Below the pieces are notes generated by a model. It worked only from the letters and a program-made list of their open reading frames with translations. It made no database searches and was not told the DNA's origin. The position numbers and the translations under genes were made by a program. Positions 6,798 to 32,000 of a DNA stretch of 32,000 nucleotides are shown here, in pieces. Location of the stretch: positions 1,470,001-1,502,000 of the forward strand of contig NC_009033.1 in assembly GCF_000015945.1 (NCBI RefSeq), read 5' to 3'. The first letter of the stretch is position 1. Every line of letters begins with the position of its first letter. Origin of the DNA: Staphylothermus marinus F1 (GTDB taxonomy: Archaea; Thermoproteota; Thermoprotei_A; Sulfolobales; Desulfurococcaceae).

Positions 6798-7182
6798 AAT
6801 ATCAGCAACTTTTTATGTAATCTTCCTATCCACATCTATTCATTATACATTATTAACCATTAGTTGTCTAATATTTTAAACCAGTTCTCCACTTAAAAAT
6901 TATCTGTCTATAGAAGAATATGTTAACCATTATAAAATAAGTATATTTCCTAGAATATATTAATAAACAAATTATTACTCTATTGTTTTTGATGGATTTT
7001 TCTTATTGAAGAAGACTATAATATGTTAAGGTTAGCGTTAATATTTATTGAAGAGATAAATTTGTTGTACATCTTGGATTATTTCTAGGAAGAACATGTT
7101 GCTCCTGCATTATTTAGCATGAACAACCACATAACAACTAAAATATTATTAAACAATCATAGTATTCATGGTTTCCAAAAAG

Positions 7183-7352
7183 AAAAACACCTGAACAAAT
7201 GAACAGTGGTTGCCCGTGCTTTATTTTTTGGTTGTTTTGGAAACTTTGGATGCTTGCACGGGCTTCCCCCTCTTGGGTTGGGGCTTCGCTCCTTCATCGT
7301 GGGGGTTATCGGGTCTCCACCAAGACCACTTTGAGCCCTTCATCCGCATTTC
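7183..7352 (-). ncRNA. Candidate structured ncRNA, family copy 1
   Basis: G+C island in A+T-rich DNA. An 8-bp stem (7212-7219 with 7256-7263) closes a 36-nt A/U loop. GGGCTC/GAG(A)CCC forms a hairpin. AGTGGT (sense) is complementary to the tail ACCACT (7205-7210 with 7325-7330). Two T5 runs on the sense strand lie at 7177-7187. The ends are approximate. Confidence 0.55.
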
Positions 7353-7382
7353 CCAAATCATTAACCATTATATTAGTGAGGG

Positions 7383-7390
7383 TTTATAAA
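7383..7390 (-). promoter_or_regulatory. TATA-box-like TTTATAAA preceded (sense) by GGGTTCGC, upstream of ncRNA copy 1
   Basis: The same GGGTTCGC-TTTATAAA-CCC module is found in all three units. A second A/T box (AATATAAT, sense) lies about 20 nt from the core start, so the exact TSS is uncertain. Confidence 0.45.
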
Positions 7391-7479
7391 GCGAACCCAA
7401 TAATTAAAACAATCATGGTTTCCACAATTTTCCAAAACAACTATAATATCCAAATAAGCGAATAGTCTTCAATGGGTGA

Positions 7480-7878
7480 ATGGGTATGAGTATACGAGTT
7501 GGTTTGAGGAGAGAAATGGATTATGTTGTATCTGAAAATGATGCACCAAAGTTCTTGTTGGATAAGGGGGTTGGTGTTCTTAGTACTCCTAGAATGATCG
7601 CGTTGATGGAGGGGAATTCGAAGAGGTTGCTTGATCAGTTTTTAGGAGAAGAATATACTAGCGTAGGCATACATGTGGATGTGTATCATAAGGCACCAGC
7701 ACCTGTTGGTTCAAGAGTTAAGTTTGTATCGGAAATTATAGAGGTTAAGAAGAATAAAGTTTTGTTTAAAGTAAAATGTGTGCTTAACGACATAGTTGTG
7801 GGAGAAGGTATTCATGAAAGAGCAATAGTTTCTTGGAACAAGTTTATAGAACATGTTAAAAAGATTATGGGAAAATAA
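7480..7878 (+). CDS. Hotdog-fold thioesterase (FlK-like / COG5496 type)
   Basis: SVGIHVDVYHKAPAPVGSRVKFVSEIIEVKKNKVLFKVKC...GEGIHERAIV fits the family pattern. Confidence 0.65.
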   Translation: MGMSIRVGLRREMDYVVSENDAPKFLLDKGVGVLSTPRMIALMEGNSKRLLDQFLGEEYTSVGIHVDVYHKAPAPVGSRVKFVSEIIEVKKNKVLFKVKCVLNDIVVGEGIHERAIVSWNKFIEHVKKIMGK

Positions 7879-11957: not shown

Positions 11958-12323
11958 CTATTTCTTCTCTAATCCAAAGATCTCCCCATATTTTCTCCCA
12001 ATAAGTGCTTCTAATAATTTCTCGTTCTTCTTAATATAAGATAATAACATGCCTAAAGCATCAGATAAAGAACTATAATCTTTCACAACCAAGTAATGAG
12101 CCATTTTACGTATAGTACCCATTACTTTCTCATCGCTCATCAATGCTTAAACCCCTCTCCTACCTCTTTTACTCAATAAATAGTTACTTATAGCTGGTTG
12201 GCTAACGCCGAGCATTTTTGATGCTTCAACCTGAGTATACTCATATTCCTCAACTAGGATCTTAGCTAGAATAGCTCTAATTGCTGGAAGAATATATTTG
12301 GAGACTATTCGCTTATCTAGATA
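11958..12323 (-). pseudogene. XRE/COG2522-like HTH regulator, 5'-truncated and split by an in-frame TAA
   Basis: The minus frame 12323->12150 reads YLDKRIVSKYILPAIRAILAKILVEEYEYTQVEASKMLGVSQPAISNYLLSKRGRRGV. There is no ATG/GTG/TTG before the HTH, and a TAG sits at 12324-12326. A TAA at 12147-12149 is followed in the same frame by the 61-aa ORF 11958..12143. Confidence 0.5.
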
Positions 12324-12387
12324 CTATAGTTATTTTGGAAGCTATGGAAATAATGGTTGTTTTGGAGGCTTTGGAGCTTGGGTTCAA

Positions 12388-12395
12388 TTTATAAA
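12388..12395 (+). promoter_or_regulatory. TATA-box-like TTTATAAA upstream of ncRNA copy 2
   Basis: GGGTTCAA-TTTATAAA-CCCC module, with the G+C-rich core starting about 35 nt downstream. A second A/T box (CAATATAATGG) lies in between. Confidence 0.45.
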
Positions 12396-12427
12396 CCCCC
12401 TACAATATAATGGTTAATGGTTTAAAA

Positions 12428-12590
12428 CTGCAGATGAAGGGCTCAAAGTGGTCTACGTGGAGCCCCGAGAGCCCCCTCCGTGAAGGAATGAAGCCCCAAC
12501 CCAAGAGGGGGAAGCCCGTGCAGATATCCAAAGTTTCCAAAACAACCAAAAGATAAAGCACGGGCAACCACAGCTTCACACCATGTTTTC
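12428..12590 (+). ncRNA. Candidate structured ncRNA, family copy 2
   Basis: GGGCTC 12439-12444 pairs with GAGCCC 12460-12465. CCCCCTC 12472-12478 pairs with GAGGGGG 12505-12511. GCCCGTGC 12514-12521 pairs with GCACGGGC 12558-12565 and closes a 36-nt A/U loop. GTGGT 12448-12452 is complementary to ACCAC 12567-12571. A T4 run lies at 12586-12589. The ends are approximate. Confidence 0.55.
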
Positions 12591-24175: not shown

Positions 24176-24316
24176 ATATCCGGAGACTATATATTTTCAA
24201 CATCATTTATTATGCTCCCGAGTATTAAGCAGAGCAGAAATGATCTAATATTCTAATTTATATCTCAATAAGTTCATCTACAAACTTCTTATATAATTCC
24301 TCACACTCTTTAGGAG

Positions 24317-24380
24317 AGACTATTCGCTTATTTAAATACTAGGCTTATTTTTAGGGAATTATGAAAAACATAATTATTTG
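24317..24380 (+). repeat. Solo left-end module of the dispersed unit
   Basis: AGACTATTCGCTTATTTAAATACTAGGCTTATTTTTAGGGAATTATGAAAAACATAATTATTTG aligns with the first 60-65 nt of copies 1-3. No G+C-rich core follows it. Confidence 0.7.
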
Positions 24381-24550
24381 ATATGATTAGTTGTTGAATT
24401 CACTTTCAGAAACGAGCTCTTTCATTTCTCATCGTCTTCTCTATGTATTCTCTGCGTCGCAGTACTCTAATATACAATTATTATTACTCTAATTATTTAT
24501 GGTGAAGATTGATTATTAATTATGTAAATAGTACTTGTTGGAGAAGAGCA

Positions 24551-25069
24551 ATGAGCGTGGTCATCATAATTCCTCGCAGAGTTGCAGAGCATGCTAGACG
24601 AGAGGCTGAGAAAAAGGGTATGACGCTTGAAGAGTATATTATTGAGCTATTATCCCATAACCTCGATCCTATGGATAAAGCCATAGAATATGTTGAAGCA
24701 GCACAGGAACTTCTACGAGAAGCTGTGGAGGAGCTTGGAAAAGGCAATCTCAGGCAAGCATCTGAGAAATTATGGGGGGCTACAGCTCTAACAGTGAAAG
24801 CTTATGCACTACATAGAGATGGTAAGCAGTTGAGAAGTCATGGAGAATTATGGGAGTATAAGGATAAATTAGTAATTGAGCTGGGTGAATGGGTATATGA
24901 TGCATGGATGGCTGCAAACGGTATGCATACATGCTTTTATGAAGGATGGTGTAGCGCTAGGGATGTAGAAATAGCGATTAAACATATAGAAAAACTAGTT
25001 AATGCCGTGAAGGAAACTATGAATAAAACAAGACACAGTACAAGCTCGAGGAATCAGGGAACCTCATAA
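24551..25069 (+). CDS. PaREP1-family protein with an N-terminal ribbon-helix-helix-like segment
   Basis: PaREP1 signature EAAQELLREAVEELGKGNLRQASEKLWGATALTVKAYA. The N-terminus IPRRVAEHARREAEKKGMTLEEYIIELL looks RHH/CopG-like. I prefer the ATG at 24551 over the track start at 24509. Confidence 0.7.
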   Translation: MSVVIIIPRRVAEHARREAEKKGMTLEEYIIELLSHNLDPMDKAIEYVEAAQELLREAVEELGKGNLRQASEKLWGATALTVKAYALHRDGKQLRSHGELWEYKDKLVIELGEWVYDAWMAANGMHTCFYEGWCSARDVEIAIKHIEKLVNAVKETMNKTRHSTSSRNQGTS

Positions 25070-25271
25070 TTTATTGAGCTGTTCACTAAGTTGACCCTAC
25101 TATTTCCATCCACAAGTTTATAAGTGTATGAACCACTGGTTTGTTTTATATCTTGGCTGTTTTTAGAACGTTATATGTGGGGCTTGCTTTATAAACCCCA
25201 TATATCCCAAGTTCGTGTTAGGGGAATTTTAGCTTATATTTTTACGTGGAACTTTAAAATGGAGGAGGTTT

Positions 25272-25526
25272 GTGGCTGGTGCTAATGTGATTTATACTAT
25301 GATATCCAAGCATGTTGCTGAAGAACTATGCTTGGAGAAGATTAGTAGGAGTATGTTCAGAATTGCTAATAGTGAAGTAGCTGAATATTCTGTTTCAGAA
25401 GCATATATAGTTGTTGAAGATAGAGATGTTGTTTTTGTTTTCTATCTAGATTTTAAAGTTTATATTGTTATGATGAACTTAATATATATTGGTGTGAGTA
25501 GTCTTGGGTTTTTGGGAATCATATAA
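25272..25526 (+). CDS. Hypothetical small protein (doubtful)
   Basis: 84-aa ORF with a GTG start preceded by GGAGGAGG. No family recognised. It overlaps the symporter start. Confidence 0.25.
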
Positions 25527-26766
25527 GCGGTTCCCTGTTATCTATAAGGTTGCTATTGCTTTTGTTCTAGGTATTGTTGCCGGCGTCATAGTGGGTCCGC
25601 CGATAGCTGTTATTAAGCCTCTTGGCGATGTCTTGATAAGATTATTGAAGATGATTGTTGTCCCAATAGTGTTGTTCTCTCTAGTGGTTGGTTCAGCGAG
25701 TATTTCTCCTCTTAAACTCGGTAAGGTTGGTGTAAAGATTATTGTCTACTATATTGTTACATCGGCTATAGCGGTTTTGATAGGTATAGCGATGGGGTTA
25801 TTGTTTCAGCCAGGTGTAGGAGTACACCTTGCTGGGACAGGTTATAGTGTTAAAACAGTTACTCCACCATCACCTATAGATGTATTACTTAACATTATAC
25901 CTACAAATCCGTGGGCTGCATTAGTTAATGGAAATGTTCTCCAAATAATATTCTTCGCAATAGTACTAGGTATTGCGCTAGCATATCTAAAGGATAGTAA
26001 GGATGAGAGGTTAAGAAATCTTGGCTCAACAGTTCTCAACGTATTTGATGGCCTCGCTGAAGCAATATATAAGATTGTTAGGGGAATTCTTGAATACATG
26101 CCGTACGGTGTCTTCGCACTCATAGGATACGCTGTTGCAATAACGGGGCCCGGAGTCTTAGGACCTCTAGGTGTTGCTGTAGTTGCACTATACTTGGGAC
26201 TTTTCATACATATCTTCGCAACATATGGTAGCATACTAGCAGTGTTTAGATTCAATATAATCAAGTTCTTGGCTAAAGCGAAGGATGCAATGTTAACAGC
26301 ATTCGTCACCAGGTCATCTTCAGGCACACTACCAATTACAATGAGTGTTGCAGAGGAGAAAATGGGTATTAAGAAATCCATTTATGCATTCACACTACCA
26401 TTAGGAGCAACAATAAACATGGATGGAACAGCAATGTACCAAGCCATAGCAACAATGTTCATTGCTAACGCTCTAGGAATACATTTAACCGTAGTACATT
26501 ATGGCATGATAGTTCTCACCGCAGTCCTAGCATCCATAGGAACAGCAGGAGTACCCGGTGCAGGACTAATAATGTTAGCCCTAGTACTACAAGCAGTAGG
26601 ACTCCCACTAACAGAACCCAACGTCGCCCTAGCATATTCGTTAATAGCAGGCATAGATGTAATCCTAGACATGGGTAGAACAATGGTCAACGTAACCGGC
26701 GATCTAACTGGAACATTAATTGTTGCAAAAACAGAGAACGAAACAGACTTATCCAAGTGGAAATAA
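25504..26766 (+). CDS. gltP: Dicarboxylate/amino acid:cation symporter (GltP/DAACS family)
   Basis: [24 protein letters not shown] and [10 protein letters not shown] motifs, with 8+ TM segments. TTG start. The long minus-strand ORFs inside it are shadows. Confidence 0.9.
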
Positions 26767-26949
26767 TACTAAATACCTTTTTATCATCCATAAATAAATT
26801 ATCATCGTTGACAATTCTTTTCTCAGAGAGAATTCTTGTTCTCAAATAGAATTATTTACCTATTCAAGTTATATGTATTGCTACATCCTTATTTTATGGT
26901 GTTGTTGTTGAGGATTACCGCTACCGTTCTTGCTGGCGGTGAGAGTAAG

Positions 26950-27125
26950 AAGTTTAGGCGTTTCCCCACCCTTATTATTTCTGAGTATTTTTGATTATTT
27001 TCCATGGGTGGGGTTAGCTCTTGGTGTGGGATCACCTGCTTCACCCACACCTCATGGGGCTCGGTCGAGCCCAACGCCATGGGGCTCCCATTTGTGGATA
27101 AGTATTTTAAGCCAATATTTATTGC
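26950..27125 (-). ncRNA. Divergent member of the candidate ncRNA family (copy 4)
   Basis: The architecture matches copies 1-3 but with different helix sequences. CCCCACCC 26964-26971 pairs with GGGTGGGG 27006-27013 around a 34-nt A/T loop. GGTGTGGG 27023-27030 pairs with CCCACACC 27044-27051. GGGCTC 27057-27062 pairs with GAGCCC 27067-27072. GGCGTT 26957-26962 is complementary to AACGCC 27073-27078. A/T boxes lie at 27100-27122 on the sense-upstream side. The strand is assigned by analogy only. Confidence 0.45.
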
Positions 27126-27316
27126 ACCTATCACGTCTCTGTCTAGTATTAATCCATTTTTTAGTTTGTTTTAGAGTAACAGTGTGGGGCCGACAAGTCT
27201 ACCTCATACTCGGATGACTTGTCGCTTGGTTGAGTGCCTCGGGAGTGCTAGTCAATATCCGGGTATATTATTTACTGTTTTATCGACTGTTTTGGCTTCT
27301 CGGCGTGTAGCGAATG

Positions 27317-27730
27317 CTAGGTTACTACTAGCTCTAGCAGGTTCTTGGAGATAGCCAGCTTTAACTTTCTCGCCTTCCTCCTGCCCATGCTCATAGGCTC
27401 ATCCCAGTATAGGAGTGAGTAGGGGCTCCCGTGGATGTAGAGGTTGGTGCCCGCAACTATCCTACCCGAGAACTCGAATACTTTAACTTCGAGGTCCTCG
27501 GTTATTATGCTCTCTAGGCTGAAGGGGCCTATAATACCTGGCGGGAGCTTCCTTTTAGTGGCCTCGACGAACCTAGTTCCATACTCGAGCACTTTGGGGA
27601 GGAGACTCTCCCTTAGCACGAGCGGTATGTTCCCCACGACTACGAAGCTGGGCTCGACTTCCCCCGCCAGGGTTGGGGGCAGCCTCTTGGCCCCGTCGAC
27701 GTTGGATTCATACCTTATGTCGGCTCCCAA
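27317..27730 (-). pseudogene. purP: C-terminal fragment of PurP (FAICAR synthetase, ATP-grasp)
   Basis: 137-aa ORF with IRYESNVDG...[24 protein letters not shown]...[13 protein letters not shown]...[26 protein letters not shown], resembling the last third of archaeal PurP. The N-terminal roughly 200 aa are absent. It is markedly G+C-rich (35 of 60 in line 27601-27660 by hand count). Confidence 0.6.
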
Positions 27731-27766
27731 GATTTCGAGCCTGCCCAGGATTGGGCTGTAGAAGAA

Positions 27767-28102
27767 GTGATAGTATGCCGGTGTGCCGATAACATACTCC
27801 TGTACAAAGAGAAACGAGACATACTGCTAAACTCTCTTGAAGAATACGTAGGCTCGGCTAAATTTACGAAGCCTAAGGCTGGTATGTTTGTTATGCTATA
27901 TCTTCCAGAAAAAGCTAGTGGAGAAGAGTTCGCATCCAAGCTCATTGACGAATACAAAGTTGCAGTTGTACCAGGAAGACCATTCTATACTGATGGCTCG
28001 GGAGCGAACACGGTAAGACTAAACTTTAGTAGACCATCAAAGAACGATATACGTGAAGCCGTAAAAAGGATTGGCGAATTATATAAAAGGTTGTATAGTT
28101 AA
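27767..28102 (+). pseudogene. C-terminal fragment of a class I/II PLP-dependent aminotransferase
   Basis: [37 protein letters not shown]...VAVVPGRPFYTDGSGANTVRLNFSRPSKNDIREAVKRIGELY matches only the last roughly 100 aa of roughly 400-aa aminotransferases. There is no upstream PLP-lysine region. Confidence 0.6.
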
Positions 28103-28626
28103 TGTTGAGTAGCTAATTCCTAACTCTCAATGCTAGGAGTTGGTGTCTTAGCGCCCTTAATAGGATTCATAGCATATACCGTTATCGGACTAATCATGAC
28201 ATTAATTGGTATATTAGTAATGAATGATTTTGGAAACCCTTATTAAACGATATATATTTCCAACATGACACACCATGGAGAAGAGGCTGATGTCCGAAGC
28301 ATGAACAACTATACTAACACATAGTACATTAACTGGTAATCCTGCATTCCCATGTTAAAATCTAAAAGTTTAAGTAAGCGTTAAGATCTACGATGGCTTC
28401 CATCCTCTGGGTAAATCCTGTGCTCGCTTCAACTATGAATACTTGTAATTAAATATAATTGGTTCCCAGAATAGATACTAATAAGATCATCCAAACACTC
28501 CTATGAGAAGGTATTGTTAGAAGAATATTCTTGTTCAGAAACCTTAGGATTTATAGGTTTACAGGTATGTAAACATATTATTTTAACATATTATTTTTTT
28601 ACTACTACTACATGGGCGACTGACTT

Positions 28627-28857
28627 ATGAGTAGGTATGTTACTGTTTCAGCTAAGGTTAGGAGGGAGCTCTTAGAGGAGGCTAAGCGTTTAAAAATTAA
28701 TGTCTCAGAGCTTATAAGGAGAGCTCTTGAGGAAGAGGTACGTCGCCGTAAACTAATTGATTTGGAGAAGAGGTTGAAGGAGAAGCGTAACGTGCTCGCC
28801 AAGATAGACATCGATGAGATAGTGAGGCTTATTCGGGAGGATAGGGAGGCTAGATAA
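28627..28857 (+). CDS. vapB: VapB-type antitoxin (ribbon-helix-helix-like)
   Basis: 76-aa charged protein (VTVSAKVRRELLEEAKRLKINVSELIRRALEEE). Its stop overlaps the ATG of the PIN gene (TAATG). Confidence 0.75.
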   Translation: MSRYVTVSAKVRRELLEEAKRLKINVSELIRRALEEEVRRRKLIDLEKRLKEKRNVLAKIDIDEIVRLIREDREAR

Positions 28858-29258
28858 TGAAGCCAAGCTATTTGTTTGATGCTTCTAGCCTTGTAAAAGC
28901 GTTGAAAGAAGCTAAACTAGTACCATTAGGTGGACAGGTTTTACAGTGGCTCACAATATACGAGGTTTTAAATGTTTTTTGGGAGGAGTCCTACTTATTA
29001 CATAGACTTAGTATTGAAGAAGCGGTTTCCCTAACAAGAGACTTCACAGATCTAGTCCTGAACATGATTATACTAGAACCTAGGGGTCTAGAACATGATA
29101 TTCTCCAAATAGCGGTTTCAAGGGGTATAACAGCTTATGATGCATCATATATAGCATTAGCTAGGAAACATGGGCTAACACTTGTAACTGAGGACCAGAT
29201 ACTAGCTAAAGCCTCCACTAATATGGTCAAGACAGTGAGTCTAGACGATATCAAGTAG
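28857..29258 (+). CDS. vapC: VapC toxin (PIN-domain ribonuclease)
   Basis: All four PIN acidic positions are present: LFDASS, TIYEVLN, TAYDASYIALA and LVTEDQ. Confidence 0.85.
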   Translation: MKPSYLFDASSLVKALKEAKLVPLGGQVLQWLTIYEVLNVFWEESYLLHRLSIEEAVSLTRDFTDLVLNMIILEPRGLEHDILQIAVSRGITAYDASYIALARKHGLTLVTEDQILAKASTNMVKTVSLDDIK

Positions 29259-29426
29259 TAGTGAATAGGGGGCTCAATCCATATAATACCCCTAATTAAT
29301 TTCTGCACAAACCCGTATACCCTAATAATGGAAACAGGTAATAGTTAAGTGGGCAATTACTACTAGTAAGACTATTTGCTTATTTGGATACTATAATTGT
29401 TTAGAGGAGCTTATTGTTGGGTTCGC

Positions 29427-29434
29427 TTTATAAA
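29427..29434 (+). promoter_or_regulatory. TATA-box-like TTTATAAA upstream of ncRNA copy 3
   Basis: GGGTTCGC-TTTATAAA-CC module. The G+C-rich core (GCAGATGAAGGGC) starts 23 nt after the box, a typical archaeal TATA-to-TSS spacing. Confidence 0.5.
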
Positions 29435-29455
29435 CCATTTATAATTGTTTGTAAA

Positions 29456-29624
29456 ATGCAGATGAAGGGCTCATGGTGGTTTGTGTGGAGCCCCAATAGC
29501 CCCTTCCGTGAAGATGATGAAAACCCAACACAAGAGGGGGAAGCCCGTGCAAGTATCAAAAATAACCAAAATAACCATAGTTTCTAAAAGATAATGCACG
29601 GGCAACCACTGCCTGTTTGTTTTG
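29456..29624 (+). ncRNA. Candidate structured ncRNA, family copy 3
   Basis: GCCCGTGC 29543-29550 pairs with GCACGGGC 29596-29603 around a 45-nt A/U loop. GTGGTT 29476-29481 is complementary to AACCAC 29604-29609. CCCCTTC pairs with GAGGGGG using a U-G wobble that works only in this orientation. T-runs lie at 29616-29623. Confidence 0.55.
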
Positions 29625-29759
29625 GAAACTATGAAAACCATGGTTGTTTTATGAGTTCTTAAACAAAACTCCTACCATGTTATATTATTATTTATTAGTA
29701 TATGGTCTTGGCTTAGATTTTTATGAAAATATTGTTTATTTAACAGAAATTATTCTTTC

Positions 29760-30181
29760 CTATAGACAGGTTCTTATTCCTAACTTATCAGCTGCGATAT
29801 GTTGTCTAGTATCAAAAGTTGCTAGGCAGGCGTTGTATTGTTGAGCTAAGGCTAGGTATAGAGAATCATATATGGTTGCCTTCTCTTTTATAGCTATATC
29901 TAGGGATTTCCCGGCGATCTCATGTGCTGGTATAACTGTGAAACCATTCCATAAAGATAATAGGTCTTTAAAAGCATTCCTAAAAGAACCTAGATCTAAA
30001 TCCTTGACTAAGATGTAGTGCTTCCATAAAGCATTAGGTGATTCATATAATGCAATATTTGATTTACTGTAGCAATTATTTCCCCGCCCCTAATCCATTT
30101 CCGAAACAGTTTTCTAGCAACCTCAGAATTCTCCCCTCCAATAACTAGTTTTACCGTGAAAGAAGCATCTAATACTATCAT
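29760..30181 (-). pseudogene. vapC: Frameshifted vapC (PIN domain)
   Basis: The minus strand reads MIVLDASFTVKLV...GGEIIA in one frame. It continues as ...NIALYESPNALWKHY...TIYDSLYLALA...LATFDTRQ in another frame, with the shift near 30065-30080. The track ORF 29644..29844 (+) is its antisense shadow. Confidence 0.7.
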
Positions 30182-30400
30182 CTACTATCCCTATCCTCTC
30201 TAATAAGCCTGGTAGAATCTATTCTAACCCTCCTCTTCCCAGCCCTAACACTTATTTCTTCAAAACCTCCAACAACCCGCATCTCTTAATTCTGTCCTCA
30301 ATAAAACTTTCTATCTCCCTACTCTTCAATCAATATATGCCTTCTCCATCTTCTCCTTTAACTCCTTGGGAACCCTGATCGTTAATATTTTAGAGCCCAT
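30178..30400 (-). pseudogene. vapB: Frameshifted vapB-type antitoxin
   Basis: From the ATG at 30400 it reads MGSKILTIRVPKELKEKMEKAYID, then a TGA at 30326-30328. Homology to the intact VapB at 28627 continues in two other frames and ends ...IDSTRLIREDRDSR*. The ATGA overlap with the PIN start is preserved. Confidence 0.65.
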
Positions 30401-30577
30401 ATAGTACAACATGTAATACAGTCATGTAATATAGAGATACAAGGCTTATCAGAAAGTAACATACAATGATAAGTCCTTGAGAACACTCCCAGACTTATGA
30501 GAGCTATCTTATACTACTCTTCCTATCCTATATTTATAAAAGGGGCTGGTAATAGTGTTTGAATAGACCCTGACGCT

Positions 30578-31147
30578 TTGTGGGGAGGAGCGGTATTGGT
30601 TTATGCGACTGTTGTGCCTAGAAGGTTTATACTAGAATCTGGGAGAGTTGTTACTCTTGAAGCATGGGAGGTTGAGGAGAAGCTCACTAGAAGCACATTG
30701 TTCATGCTCTGGGCCCCCGATGTTGAGAAGGTGTATAAGTATCTCGTTCAAGAGCAGGGGTTTGAGCCTGCTATTCCCTCCACTCCTAAGGGGGAGAAGT
30801 ATGGGTTGAGACGCGTCCTTGACCAAGTATGGGAGCTCCACCTCAGGCTATACAGTAATGGCTTCATAGAGGCTGAGGTGGAGGTTAGGAGGGATTTCTT
30901 GGAGCACCTCCAGCCTAGGAGGCTTAACGTGGTCTACGAGGCATATGAGTACTATAGGGGGGTCTACGATAAACTCCATATATGGTACACTCCAGAGAAG
31001 GAATGGATCACGAGGATAATAGACCACTTCAACGTCAAGCTAAGAGACCCCGAAACACTAACCCCCTGGAAACCAATAGTTCTAGGAATAGTTACAACCG
31101 GACTATTCATCTACGCTCTCTCAAGACTCACAAGAGGGAGAGTGTAG
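30578..31147 (+). CDS. Hypothetical protein with a C-terminal membrane anchor
   Basis: 189-aa ORF ending in the TM helix PIVLGIVTTGLFIYALSRL. It is G+C-richer than the surroundings (29 of 60 in line 30841-30900 by hand count). Its stop overlaps the GTG of the following PaREP1 gene. The start (TTG at 30578) is uncertain. Confidence 0.45.
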   Translation: MWGGAVLVYATVVPRRFILESGRVVTLEAWEVEEKLTRSTLFMLWAPDVEKVYKYLVQEQGFEPAIPSTPKGEKYGLRRVLDQVWELHLRLYSNGFIEAEVEVRRDFLEHLQPRRLNVVYEAYEYYRGVYDKLHIWYTPEKEWITRIIDHFNVKLRDPETLTPWKPIVLGIVTTGLFIYALSRLTRGRV

Positions 31148-31545
31148 TGGGTGAGGCTCCAGCAACTCATATAGAGAATCTAAGGAAATGGTTTAGAGAG
31201 GCATTAGAACTACTCGAGAAGGGGGATGCAGTTCAGGGTTCAGAGAAGCTCTACAAGATCGCCGAGGCAGCAATAAAGATACTGGCTAAAGTGAAGCAAA
31301 TACCAGAATATGAGAAGGCTCAAAGAGAAGATAGATGGTGGCCAAGACTGCTACAACGAGCCGCGAGAAGGCTTAGCGAAATCTATGGTAAAGAAGTCCT
31401 AGACGCTTGGAACACAGCATATCACCGTCTCCATATAGATGGCTTCCACGAAGAGAGGCTTTCAGCGGAGGAAGTGTTGGAAGAGGCATATATAATAGAA
31501 GACCTCGTCAAGCTTGTGGAGAGGGAGGCAGGAAATAATAGGTAA
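31147..31545 (+). CDS. PaREP1-family protein
   Basis: REALELLEKGDAVQGSEKLYKIAEAAIKILA is the PaREP1 signature. I start it at the GTG at 31147 (TAGTG overlap). The track ORF from 30982 would run through the preceding gene in another frame. Confidence 0.7.
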   Translation: MGEAPATHIENLRKWFREALELLEKGDAVQGSEKLYKIAEAAIKILAKVKQIPEYEKAQREDRWWPRLLQRAARRLSEIYGKEVLDAWNTAYHRLHIDGFHEERLSAEEVLEEAYIIEDLVKLVEREAGNNR

Positions 31546-31701
31546 AACCGATAATTGAGCCTCCCCAAGTAAAAGCACTGTGTAAATAATAGTGAGCAAT
31601 GATTATACTTGGCTATGGCTGGCAGTCATCATATTATCTGCTTTCAGAGCACTTCTACTCTTCCCTAATTATACTTATGCATATAGTTGTAGATGAATAT
31701 C

Positions 31702-32000
31702 TTAATCAACTAGATGAGTTAGTTCTATCCAGTACTTAGAAGCATCTCTTAACACAATACTCTTGTTTATTCTCTCATAGAATTCCTCACTAGTATATGG
31801 GAGTACTTCTATGAATGGGGTGATGTTTTTTATGAAGATAATCTTGTTGATTATGTCAAGCCTCTTTGAGAAGGGAATGTTCTTGAAGTCTCTAGAAACT
31901 ATTATTAAATCTATATCACTCGTTTTAAGCCATGTACCCTTTGCATAGCTTCCAAACAATATGATTCTATCTATTCTAAACCCTTCTCTCTGGATAGAGT
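31702..32000 (-). CDS. Minimal nucleotidyltransferase (MNT / Pol-beta superfamily), 5' end beyond the window
   Basis: LFGSYAKGTWLKTSDIDLIIV carries the GS...DxD motif. The frame stays open upstream of the track ATG (…SIQREGFRIDRIILFGSYAKG) to the window edge. Confidence 0.75.
   Translation of the reverse strand, partial: SIQREGFRIDRIILFGSYAKGTWLKTSDIDLIIVSRDFKNIPFSKRLDIINKIIFIKNITPFIEVLPYTSEEFYERINKSIVLRDASKYWIELTHLVD

Follow-up and report, generated by a model that had tools for sequence, protein, structure and literature searches.

Four GC-rich structured elements of Staphylothermus marinus as probable guide-RNA scaffolds of IS607-type transposons

What are the four GC-rich structured elements that the AT-rich hyperthermophilic archaeon Staphylothermus marinus F1 carries within a single stretch of 32,000 nucleotides (contig NC_009033.1, positions 1,470,001 to 1,502,000)? 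We call this whole stretch the window, number positions from its first letter and refer to the elements as copies 1-4. A pseudogene fragment beside copy 4 shows 100% identity to a protein of S. marinus F1, and further proteins of the window have S. marinus accessions. Copies 1-3 share 76-89% mutual identity. Copy 4, on the minus strand at 26950-27125, was predicted from the letters alone to be a divergent version of the same RNA, in which whole helices are replaced by different but still complementary sequences. The minus-strand letters quoted in this original prediction match exactly on re-reading.

We propose that copy 4 is the right-hand stub of a decayed IS607-type transposon and contains the scaffold of a TnpB guide RNA (omega RNA, also called right-end RNA or reRNA). 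Copies 1-3 are then MITEs (miniature inverted-repeat transposable elements) that carry a related guide RNA. We assign this reading a probability of about 0.85.

The end of a tnpB gene

The minus-strand frame that runs through copy 4 translates as ..KLKNGLILDRDVIGAINIGLKYLSTNGSPMALGSTEPHEVWVKQVIPHQELTPP.. and matches residues 367-422 of a 429-aa metagenomic TnpB (locus L019) at 77% identity (tblastn against the window, E=2e-23). Immediately upstream of this remnant the frame translations contain stop codons and frameshifts. In the window, tblastn finds nothing further upstream of residues 367-422 and no other TnpB or TnpA remnant. Copy 4 is thus encoded on the tnpB strand and overlaps the 3' end of the tnpB open reading frame (ORF): the stub consists of the last 56 tnpB codons and about 40 more bases up to the transposon boundary.

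This position changes how parts of the sequence have to be read. The two "A/T boxes" that had been placed in front of the RNA (AATAAATATT, CTTAAAATAC) are codons for ..AINIGLKY.. of the RuvC-III motif of TnpB. Instead of a free-standing RNA gene with such boxes, we find the right end of an IS607 element that overlaps the end of a dead tnpB. Because about two thirds of the copy 4 RNA double as (former) coding sequence, the argument that concerted helix replacement is not expected for coding sequence is inapplicable as stated.

Pfam finds no match to the peptides of copy 4 or of the MITEs. The copy 4 fragment is too short to be recognised in this way, so that its identification needed a phmmer search, here of 1.84 billion protein representatives. 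This search yields 63 protein clusters with the copy 4-type tail. Most are fragments; the one 477-aa member (P0411) has the same tail at its C-terminus. Cluster members match TIGR01766 (TnpB-related) at 37.7-46.1 bits, with a cut-off of 32, and further domain matches of the relatives are Cas12f1-like_TNB and PF07282. Exact look-ups find no ORF overlapping copies 1-4 in the protein collection.

Scanning metagenomes with the back-translated tail gives 333 relatives of copy 4, and 80 of these loci were retrieved. In the relatives, the block of about 140 nt is the 3' end of TnpB-like genes of IS607-type elements. Full tnpB ORFs lie upstream of the RNA in L019 (1403-2692) and L039 (1319-2671). L039 is a complete two-gene element: an IS607 transposase is followed by a 450-aa TnpB-related protein with the copy 4-type tail and RNA. 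Its first ORF matches NF033518 (IS607 family transposase) at 210.6 bits (cut-off 110) as well as the Pfam domains Resolvase and HTH_17, and provides the serine-recombinase TnpA of an autonomous copy. The TnpB-like proteins P0385, P0383, P0411 and those of L019 and L039 keep the RuvC D..E..D motifs and have no cysteines at the usual position of the CxxC..CxxC zinc ribbon (TNB domain).

The block also has a sharp end. Among the relatives, similarity breaks off abruptly after ...GGGGAAACGC. In our family alignment (A5; 63 distinct sequences, copy 4 first), the columns through ..AAACGC(T) have an identity of 0.865, and those beyond it of 0.35. This drop marks the right end of the transposon. The left end and the transposon-associated motif (TAM) of copy 4-type elements are less clear; when the upstream regions are aligned, only TAAATACTT repeats emerge.

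A covarying fold with a pseudoknot

The A5 consensus reads AUGGGAGCCCnAUGGCGUUGGGCUCGACnGAGCCCCAUGAGGUGUGGGUGAAGCUAAUGAnCCCACACCAAGGGCUAAC, followed by a 12-bp helix P3 with a 31-nt A/U loop and by GAAACGC. It folds into a hairpin P1, a two-part helix P2 (outer and inner), P3 and a pseudoknot. In this structure 95.8% of the cells are paired, compared to 34-48% with slid partners. Both sides vary in 23 of the 37 pairs (218 cells, against about 60 in shuffles), and none of 500 shuffles attains the observed value. The central claim of the original prediction, a selected RNA fold with replacement of whole helices, is therefore borne out, and the stems proposed for copy 4 (CCCCACCC/GGGUGGGG, GGCGUU/AACGCC and GAGCCC/GGGCUC) are all present.

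P1 is paired in 97.4% of its cells and varies on both sides in five of six pairs: GAGCCC/GGGCUC is exchanged for GAGGGC/GCCCUC, GAGGGG/CCCCUC or GGGUGG/CACCCC. The pairing of GGGCUC with GAGCCC had been noticed before, and it exists, but it had been assigned to the wrong segments. The conserved helix is GAGCCC-loop-GGGCUC. The alternative hairpin GGGCUC-GACN-GAGCCC is what a minimum free energy fold chooses for copy 4 (with GACC there); in the family it shows no compensatory change and is less paired than in shuffles.

Both-side changes affect three of five pairs of P2-outer, where AGCCC/GGGCU becomes GGGCC/GGCCC or GAUCC/GGAUC, and four of eight pairs of P2-inner, where GGUGUGGG/CCCACACC becomes GGCUUGGG/CCCAAGCC. 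Copy 4 itself has a G to A change at alignment column 80 (GGGCU to GAGCU), which breaks one P2-outer pair. The CCAAGAG landmark pointed out earlier is present in copy 4 as a mutated form of the family consensus CCAAGGG(CU). In the main P3 helix, eight of ten pairs change on both sides. From the 12 bp of the family P3, copy 4 has lost the four apical, loop-proximal pairs (four non-pairs in the alignment to the covariance model R1, introduced below).

The loop-to-tail pairing, which had been suggested as a pseudoknot or closing helix, holds up in the family as a pseudoknot. The P1 loop contains its 5' strand (in copy 4 GGCGUU, 27078-27073), which pairs with the last nucleotides of the scaffold, beside the position of the guide. 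Among the 63 sequences this helix (columns 21-26 with 151-157) is 95.8% paired, and loop GGCGUU and tail AACGC are nearly invariant. Compensatory changes occur in three sequences: L057 (GGCAUU/AAUGC), L088 (GACGUU/AACGU) and the second copy in L086 (CCGUU/AACGG). Compensatory events are few because the pseudoknot varies little.

The compensatory changes alter the encoded residues, for example GSPMALGS to GRAMALPS or GRGMAFPS. Hence, selection acts on the pairing and not on the protein sequence. Conservation also runs beyond the stop codon, through the 3' strand of P3 and the tail.

No Rfam 15 family matches copies 1-4 when the whole window is searched at gathering thresholds, and a permissive Rfam search around copies 4 and 2 gives only chance-level matches (E of at least 0.47). 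A tRNA/tmRNA scan of the window finds none. Position, boundary and flank-adjacent pseudoknot are hallmarks of a TnpB omega RNA or reRNA. Thus, the pairing family is most probably a TnpB omega-RNA scaffold, a known class whose present members are absent from Rfam.

Divergent copy 4-type units also occur alone, with no tnpB upstream, in the metagenomic loci L019 (3578-3699) and L086 (2412-2556). The L086 unit is the one with the flipped pseudoknot pair CCGUU/AACGG.

The MITEs and their relation to copy 4

According to the genome paper of S. marinus (Anderson et al. 2009, PMC2678158), the genome has five elements of the IS607 family, among them four with a tnpB-type ORF only, and a MITE of about 260 nt in 14 copies. 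It ties these MITEs to the IS607-family tnpB elements. By size, copy number and published description, copies 1-3 are these MITEs: each is about 260 bp long, and they have a common left end, inverted repeats and a common right end. Copy 4 has no left-end box and no blastn match to copies 1-3.

A MITE begins with a left-end box (GAC|TATTCGCTTAT..GATACTATAG; here and below, the bar marks the junction). Next come the TTTTGGAAAC-type repeats that form an "M" box, a strong archaeal promoter consisting of a TFB recognition element (BRE) and a TATA box (GGGTTCGCTTTATAAACC), and a GC-rich segment of about 140 nt. In copy 2 this segment reads AUGAA-GGGCUC-(AAAGUGGUCUACGUG)-GAGCCC-CGAGAG-CCCCCUC-(..GUGAAGGAAUGAAG..)-GAGGGGG-AA in its 5' part and GCCCGUGC-(36-nt A-rich loop)-GCACGGGC-A-ACCAC in its 3' part. 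The pseudoknot strands of copies 1-3 are GUGGU(U) and (A)ACCAC.

The boundaries of a MITE can be read from an empty site. In Staphylothermus hellenicus the site of copy 2 is ..TAGAGAC|GGCTTCACAC.. (extended, ..TTTTTAGAGAC|GGCTTCACACAATG..), whereas S. marinus has ..GGAGAC|TATTCGC...CAACCAC|AGCTTCACAC.. (extended, ..ATTTGGAGAC|TATTCGC...GGGCAACCAC|AGCTTCACACCATG..). Copy 2 is therefore a clean insertion of 266 bp relative to S. hellenicus, and its right end lies exactly at ..AACCAC. The insertion has no terminal inverted repeats and no target duplication. At the site of copy 1, S. hellenicus has a decayed remnant with a deleted P3 loop and broken stems, while L006 and L007, which are more distant relatives, lack the element there. 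In 33 kb of syntenic S. hellenicus DNA, blastn finds no intact counterpart of copies 1-4.

To compare the two types, we built a covariance model, R1, from 57 metagenomic sequences, excluding all sequences of the window, and searched the window with filters off. R1 recovers copy 4 over model positions 1-141, and copies 3, 2 and 1 are the next three matches (scores in Table 1). The best of the remaining matches in the 32-kb window scores 10 bits (E=0.83). All three MITE matches span model positions 1-141, and the 3' end of the model coincides with the MITE boundary known from the empty site. Since R1 accommodates all four copies, the failure to place both versions in one model, named beforehand as grounds for giving up the common fold, did not occur.

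The layouts agree as well. In both types P1 has 6 bp, with the strand order flipped between them, and holds a pseudoknot strand in its loop; a tail of 5-6 nt pairs with this loop. P2-outer has 7 bp in the MITEs and 5 bp in the family, and P3, with its long A-rich loop, has 8 and 12 bp, respectively. In both types AA links P2 to P3, and the tail is preceded by A or AA. Copies 1-4 share the start CAGAUGRRRGC and the motif GUGAAG..AAUGAA in P2. We consider it very probable that copies 1-3 are homologous to copy 4.

Table 1. Features of copies 1-4 in the window, with their matches to the covariance model R1 where a whole copy was matched.
Feature	Position	Strand	Description	R1 match
Copy 4, omega-RNA scaffold	26957-27091	-	right end of decayed IS607-family element; from AUGGGAGCCC... 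to ...GGGGAAACGCC	132.6 bits, E=2e-29
Copy 4, transposon boundary	~26957/26956	-	similarity in A5 ends after AAACGC(T)	
Copy 4, TnpB-like gene remnant	27000-27167	-	last 56 codons, ..KLKNGLILDRDVIGAINIGLKYLSTNGSPMALGSTEPHEVWVKQVIPHQELTPPME; includes RuvC-III motif DRD..AINIG	
Copy 4, P1 hairpin	27067-27087	-	GAGCCC (27087-27082) with GGGCUC (27072-27067); loop CAUGGCGUU	
Copy 4, P2 (outer)	27016-27061	-	AGCCC (27061-27057) with GAGCU (27020-27016), one mismatch	
Copy 4, P2-inner	27051-27044 and 27030-27023	-	GGUGUGGG with CCCACACC; loop UGAAGCAGGUGAU	
Copy 4, P3	26964-27013	-	CCCCACCC (27013-27006) with GGGUGGGG (26971-26964); 34-nt A/U-rich loop	
Copy 4, pseudoknot 3' strand	26957-26962	-	AACGCC; last scaffold nucleotides before the flank	
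Copy 1, MITE, 259 bp	7206-7464	-	omega-RNA-like part 7343-7206; promoter box GGGTTCGCTTTATAAACC at ~7381-7398	21.4 bits, E=1.8e-3
Copy 2, MITE, 266 bp	12306-12571	+	RNA part 12434-12571; inside 5' end of HTH_3 gene	23.9 bits, E=4.5e-4
Copy 3, MITE, 237 bp	29373-29609	+	RNA part 29462-29609; M box largely deleted	24.9 bits, E=2.7e-4

Beyond copies 1-3, a MITE-type 3' end (..GAAGCCCGTGAAGTTTCCAAAAGATGAAGCACAGGCAACCAC) occurs in the metagenome contig L033 (2985-3083), and another lies just outside the window in S. marinus (L012, 2951-2988); such units are decayed or protein-less. No match to copy 2 is found by blastn in plasmid and phage collections, and a scan of viral contigs finds nothing. In the GTDB genomes, a set that evidently does not include S. 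marinus, the exact pattern GATGAAGGGCTC..AGAGGGGGAAG has only a chance match in one Atribacteria metagenome-assembled genome.

Several other identities for these sequences were considered and rejected. A 40-aa ORF (MKGSKWS..) in copies 1 and 2 might have been a small protein gene; however, almost all differences between the two copies are non-synonymous, copy 3 is frameshifted after ..FRE, and the ORF has no Pfam match and is absent from the protein collection. Boxes resembling the origin recognition boxes of a replication origin and a C/D or H/ACA small RNA were also discarded. So was a palindrome-associated transposable element (PATE) of the IS200/IS605 type, with a Y1 transposase, as the intact relatives have a serine recombinase.

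The MITEs also mark their surroundings. The HTH_3 regulator gene downstream of the methionyl-tRNA synthetase gene (window 11958-12305, minus strand; L004 11505-11879) is intact in S. hellenicus (124 aa) and broken twice in S. marinus: the MITE interrupts it after about codon 9, and one CAA codon has changed to the nonsense codon TAA. The left end of copy 2 faces the truncated gene with a TATA-like box. At copy 1, a FlK-type thioesterase gene (7480-7878) begins 15 nt from the left end (window 7464-7480), an arrangement that is kept at the decayed S. hellenicus remnant (L004, about 7000-7024). The FlK promoter must therefore lie within the left end of the MITE, which may be an exapted promoter.

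Parts of MITEs are found on their own, too. A solo left-end box (24316-24351) and a solo MITE-type BRE/TATA box (25176-25204), 860 bp apart, flank a PaREP1 gene (24509-25069), with no RNA part after them. They could be a MITE that was split by an insertion, or re-used promoter pieces. Partial second units, consisting of an M box and a degenerate promoter, directly follow the right ends of copy 1 (7095-7200, minus strand) and copy 3 (29617-29680, plus strand); the one at copy 1 also has ..AATGCAGGAGC. These extra 105 bp or so at copy 1 are missing from S. hellenicus. The partial second units suggest tandem insertion beside an existing right end.

Proposed role, alternatives and genomic setting

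How would such an RNA work? In an intact element it would fold into P1, the two-part P2 and P3, and the final five or six nucleotides of the scaffold would pair with the P1 loop in the pseudoknot. TnpB would bind this scaffold. A guide of 16-20 nt would be transcribed from the DNA just beyond the transposon, presumably beginning after ..AACGCC in copy 4 and after ..AACCAC in the MITEs. The complex of TnpB and RNA would then cut an empty copy of the insertion site and in this way favour the retention and spread of the element. We infer transcription, TnpB binding, guide use, the TAM and the probable loss of activity in copy 4, in line with related systems: a pseudoknot formed by the last scaffold nucleotides is a core feature common to TnpB and Fanzor2 RNAs (PMC11832414), IS607 TnpB reRNAs with pseudoknots have been characterised (PMC11061315), and protein-less elements can encode omega RNAs that are used by TnpB in trans (PMC10055086).

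Copies 1-3 would be non-autonomous derivatives of the S. marinus tnpB elements. Each retains only a left end with promoters, a related omega-RNA scaffold and a right end. TnpA and TnpB, both supplied in trans, would mobilise and read these derivatives, respectively. The MITE promoter would drive the scaffold directly, with transcripts expected to start near (C)AGAUGAAGGG.

As double-stranded DNA, the A/U-rich P3 loop probably also serves as recombinase-binding repeats of the right end. The MITE loop carries GTTTCCAAAA, the inverse complement of TTTTGGAAAC in the M box, and the copy 4-type loop carries AAGTATT, the inverse complement of the TAAATACTT repeats upstream of tnpA. Most simply, these loop and left-end repeats are the binding sites of the recombinase and what the 2009 paper called "inverted repeats". 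AC is the final dinucleotide at either junction of the MITE (..GAC| and ..CCAC|) and at the empty site (..GAC|), which would be consistent with the crossover core of a serine recombinase. Each left flank of a MITE, like the empty site, terminates in ..AGAC, which may hint at a TAM or a recombination core.

Several observations weigh against our reading. In copy 4, P2 contains a mismatch and P3 is shortened; a cognate tnpB is not found nearby (the nearest tnpB in S. marinus is Smar_1546). The TnpB-like proteins reach 48.9 bits against the curated NCBIfam model guided_TnpB, whose cut-off is 100, and lack the CxxC zinc-ribbon cysteines, so that they are only putative nucleases. The pseudoknot varies little and has compensatory events in three sequences. 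The scores that link the MITEs to the family are modest (21-25 bits), antisense P3 hairpins alone score 20-26 bits in other loci, and the three MITEs, being paralogues, count as one observation. The MITEs have no inner P2 stem and share no similarity with the copy 4 type by blastn or at the protein level. Finally, the similarity documented for the MITEs in 2009 concerns solely the region upstream of the tnpB ORFs (PMC2678158). Copy 4 is probably no longer active; most likely it is a decaying relic, slightly eroded and with no tnpB of its own.

Could coding constraint on TnpB's C-terminal tail alone account for the conservation and the apparent structure? In its 5' two thirds, the block does encode a conserved protein tail (..DGSPMALGSTEPHEVWVKLVNPHRGLTPLTELK), yet paired columns covary with non-conservative residue changes (SP..G to RA..P), both-side changes are seen in 218 cells instead of the roughly 60 of shuffles, and the 3' strand of P3 and the tail, past the stop codon, equal the ORF in conservation (0.865) as far as the sharp boundary. 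Copies 1-3 fit the structural model even though their pseudo-ORF has no tblastn match to the family loci; this pseudo-ORF has a frameshift in copy 3, and nearly all of its changes between copies 1 and 2 are non-synonymous. We find an explanation without a functional RNA extremely improbable. There is only a very small chance, in our view, that the four copies are paralogues of a host regulatory small RNA independent of any transposon, with the A/U-rich P3 loop as an antisense seed. Strong BRE/TATA boxes precede copies 1-3, there is complementarity between the P3 loop and TTTTGGAAAC-type boxes nearby, and transposon-derived antisense RNAs are reported from Sulfolobus (PMC3674436). However, copy 2 disrupts a gene, and copy 1 has only a decayed counterpart in S. 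hellenicus and none in relatives further away. These loci are thus not conserved as host genes. The copy 4 type is always the 3' end of tnpB and its similarity stops at the element boundary. The complementarity of loop and boxes is also found in intact IS607-type elements, there between the left end and the P3 loop, as expected for recombinase-binding repeats.

A different possibility is that copy 4 is the stub of an omega RNA while copies 1-3 are not homologous to it, owing to convergence or to descent from the guide RNA of an unrelated TnpB clade. The missing blastn similarity, the missing inner P2 stem and scores of 21-25 bits, where a P3-like hairpin alone can reach about 20-26, speak for this. 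Nevertheless, the three MITEs are the top non-self matches, they align over the whole model, and their 3' ends fall on the mapped boundary. Like copy 4, they start with CAGAUGRRRGC, contain the motif GUGAAG..AAUGAA and have AA linkers. The genome paper links them to IS607-family tnpB elements (PMC2678158), and the divergent protein-less units in L019 and L086 show that the copy 4 type itself occurs in such a form. We regard non-homology as unlikely and retain the reading of a tnpB stub with three related MITEs.

How does this system compare with known ones? Like the TnpB omega RNAs or reRNAs of IS200/IS605 and IS607 elements (ISDra2; ISFba1, with its RAGATH-18-derived reRNA, PMC11061315), the copy 4 RNA lies on the tnpB strand and overlaps the 3' end of tnpB. 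It shares with them a scaffold that ends at the right end of the transposon, stem-loops with a guide-adjacent pseudoknot and, in intact copies, an IS607 serine-recombinase TnpA. Unlike these, the copy 4 family has no sequence or covariance match in Rfam 15, its hosts are hyperthermophilic archaea, and its partner proteins of 430-480 aa fall below the guided_TnpB cut-off, lack the CxxC cysteines and are putative nucleases.

Copies 1-3 agree with the published MITEs in being multicopy, with internal or flanking inverted repeats, and in disrupting a gene. The 2009 paper (PMC2678158) describes no RNA, fold or guide-RNA role for the MITEs, and copy 4 is not among them. Like PATE-like IS200/IS605 derivatives (Meers et al., PMC10055086), the MITEs are non-autonomous and keep ends and scaffold, with TnpA and TnpB acting in trans. 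In contrast to those, the parent is IS607-type, with a serine recombinase that acts on double-stranded DNA instead of a Y1 transposase that acts on single-stranded DNA, and the S. marinus MITE has its own strong archaeal promoter directly before the scaffold. Two further archaeal cases are comparable as reported, and both are present in several paralogous copies. The sense overlapping transcripts (sotRNAs) of IS1341-type tnpB in Halobacterium (PMC4615843) are non-coding RNAs from the 3' part of a tnpB-type gene. The RNA-257 paralogues of Sulfolobus solfataricus (PMC3674436) are transposon-derived non-coding RNAs, too, but RNA-257 is reported there as an antisense regulator of an mRNA.

The surroundings of copy 4 are variable. 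S. marinus contains a laterally transferred cluster, Smar_1525-1541 (PMC2678158), whose first gene, by accession order, is the transporter gene that immediately precedes copy 4. It was reasonable to suggest that copy 4 was imported from another lineage: it is what is left of a transposon other than the MITEs and lies at the transferred cluster. A GC-rich patch next to it (27317-28102, 49-50% GC) contains fragments of two genes, which encode 137 C-terminal residues of a DUF1297/PurP-type enzyme and roughly 110 C-terminal residues of a class I/II aminotransferase, and it fits the transferred cluster. At about 70% identity, the DUF1297/PurP fragment is closest to proteins from other Desulfurococcaceae, from Ignisphaera and from Acidilobaceae. 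Right after the NagA gene, S. marinus and S. hellenicus cease to be syntenic (L011 13100-21800 against window 24200-32000). Beyond it, the two genomes have differing sets of toxin-antitoxin, HEPN/nucleotidyltransferase and PaREP1 genes. These differing sets identify a variable island, which holds a MITE and the insertion sequence stub.

Four GC-rich structured elements of an AT-rich hyperthermophile are thus explained as transposon guide-RNA scaffolds. This is no new kind of biology, as the class is known, but it connects the MITEs of 2009 to the OMEGA/TnpB mechanism that was discovered later; our literature search found no paper that links Staphylothermus to TnpB. A more far-reaching interpretation, which we consider quite improbable, is a distinct thermostable RNA-guided system of zinc-ribbon-less TnpB-like proteins and an omega RNA outside Rfam, with MITEs that are partly exploited by the host as modules of only a promoter and a guide RNA. 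If this were true, the left end of a MITE as promoter of the FlK thioesterase gene would be one example of host exploitation, and complexes of TnpB and omega RNA programmed by the flanks of MITEs would act as RNA-guided regulators and not as homing nucleases. The product of the present analysis is a well-supported structural alignment of an archaeal IS607-type omega-RNA family, in which covariation is strong and the 3' boundary exact. Hundreds of metagenomic members belong to this family, which Rfam does not include. Annotation could profit from the alignment, as could the mining of thermostable, compact RNA-guided nucleases.

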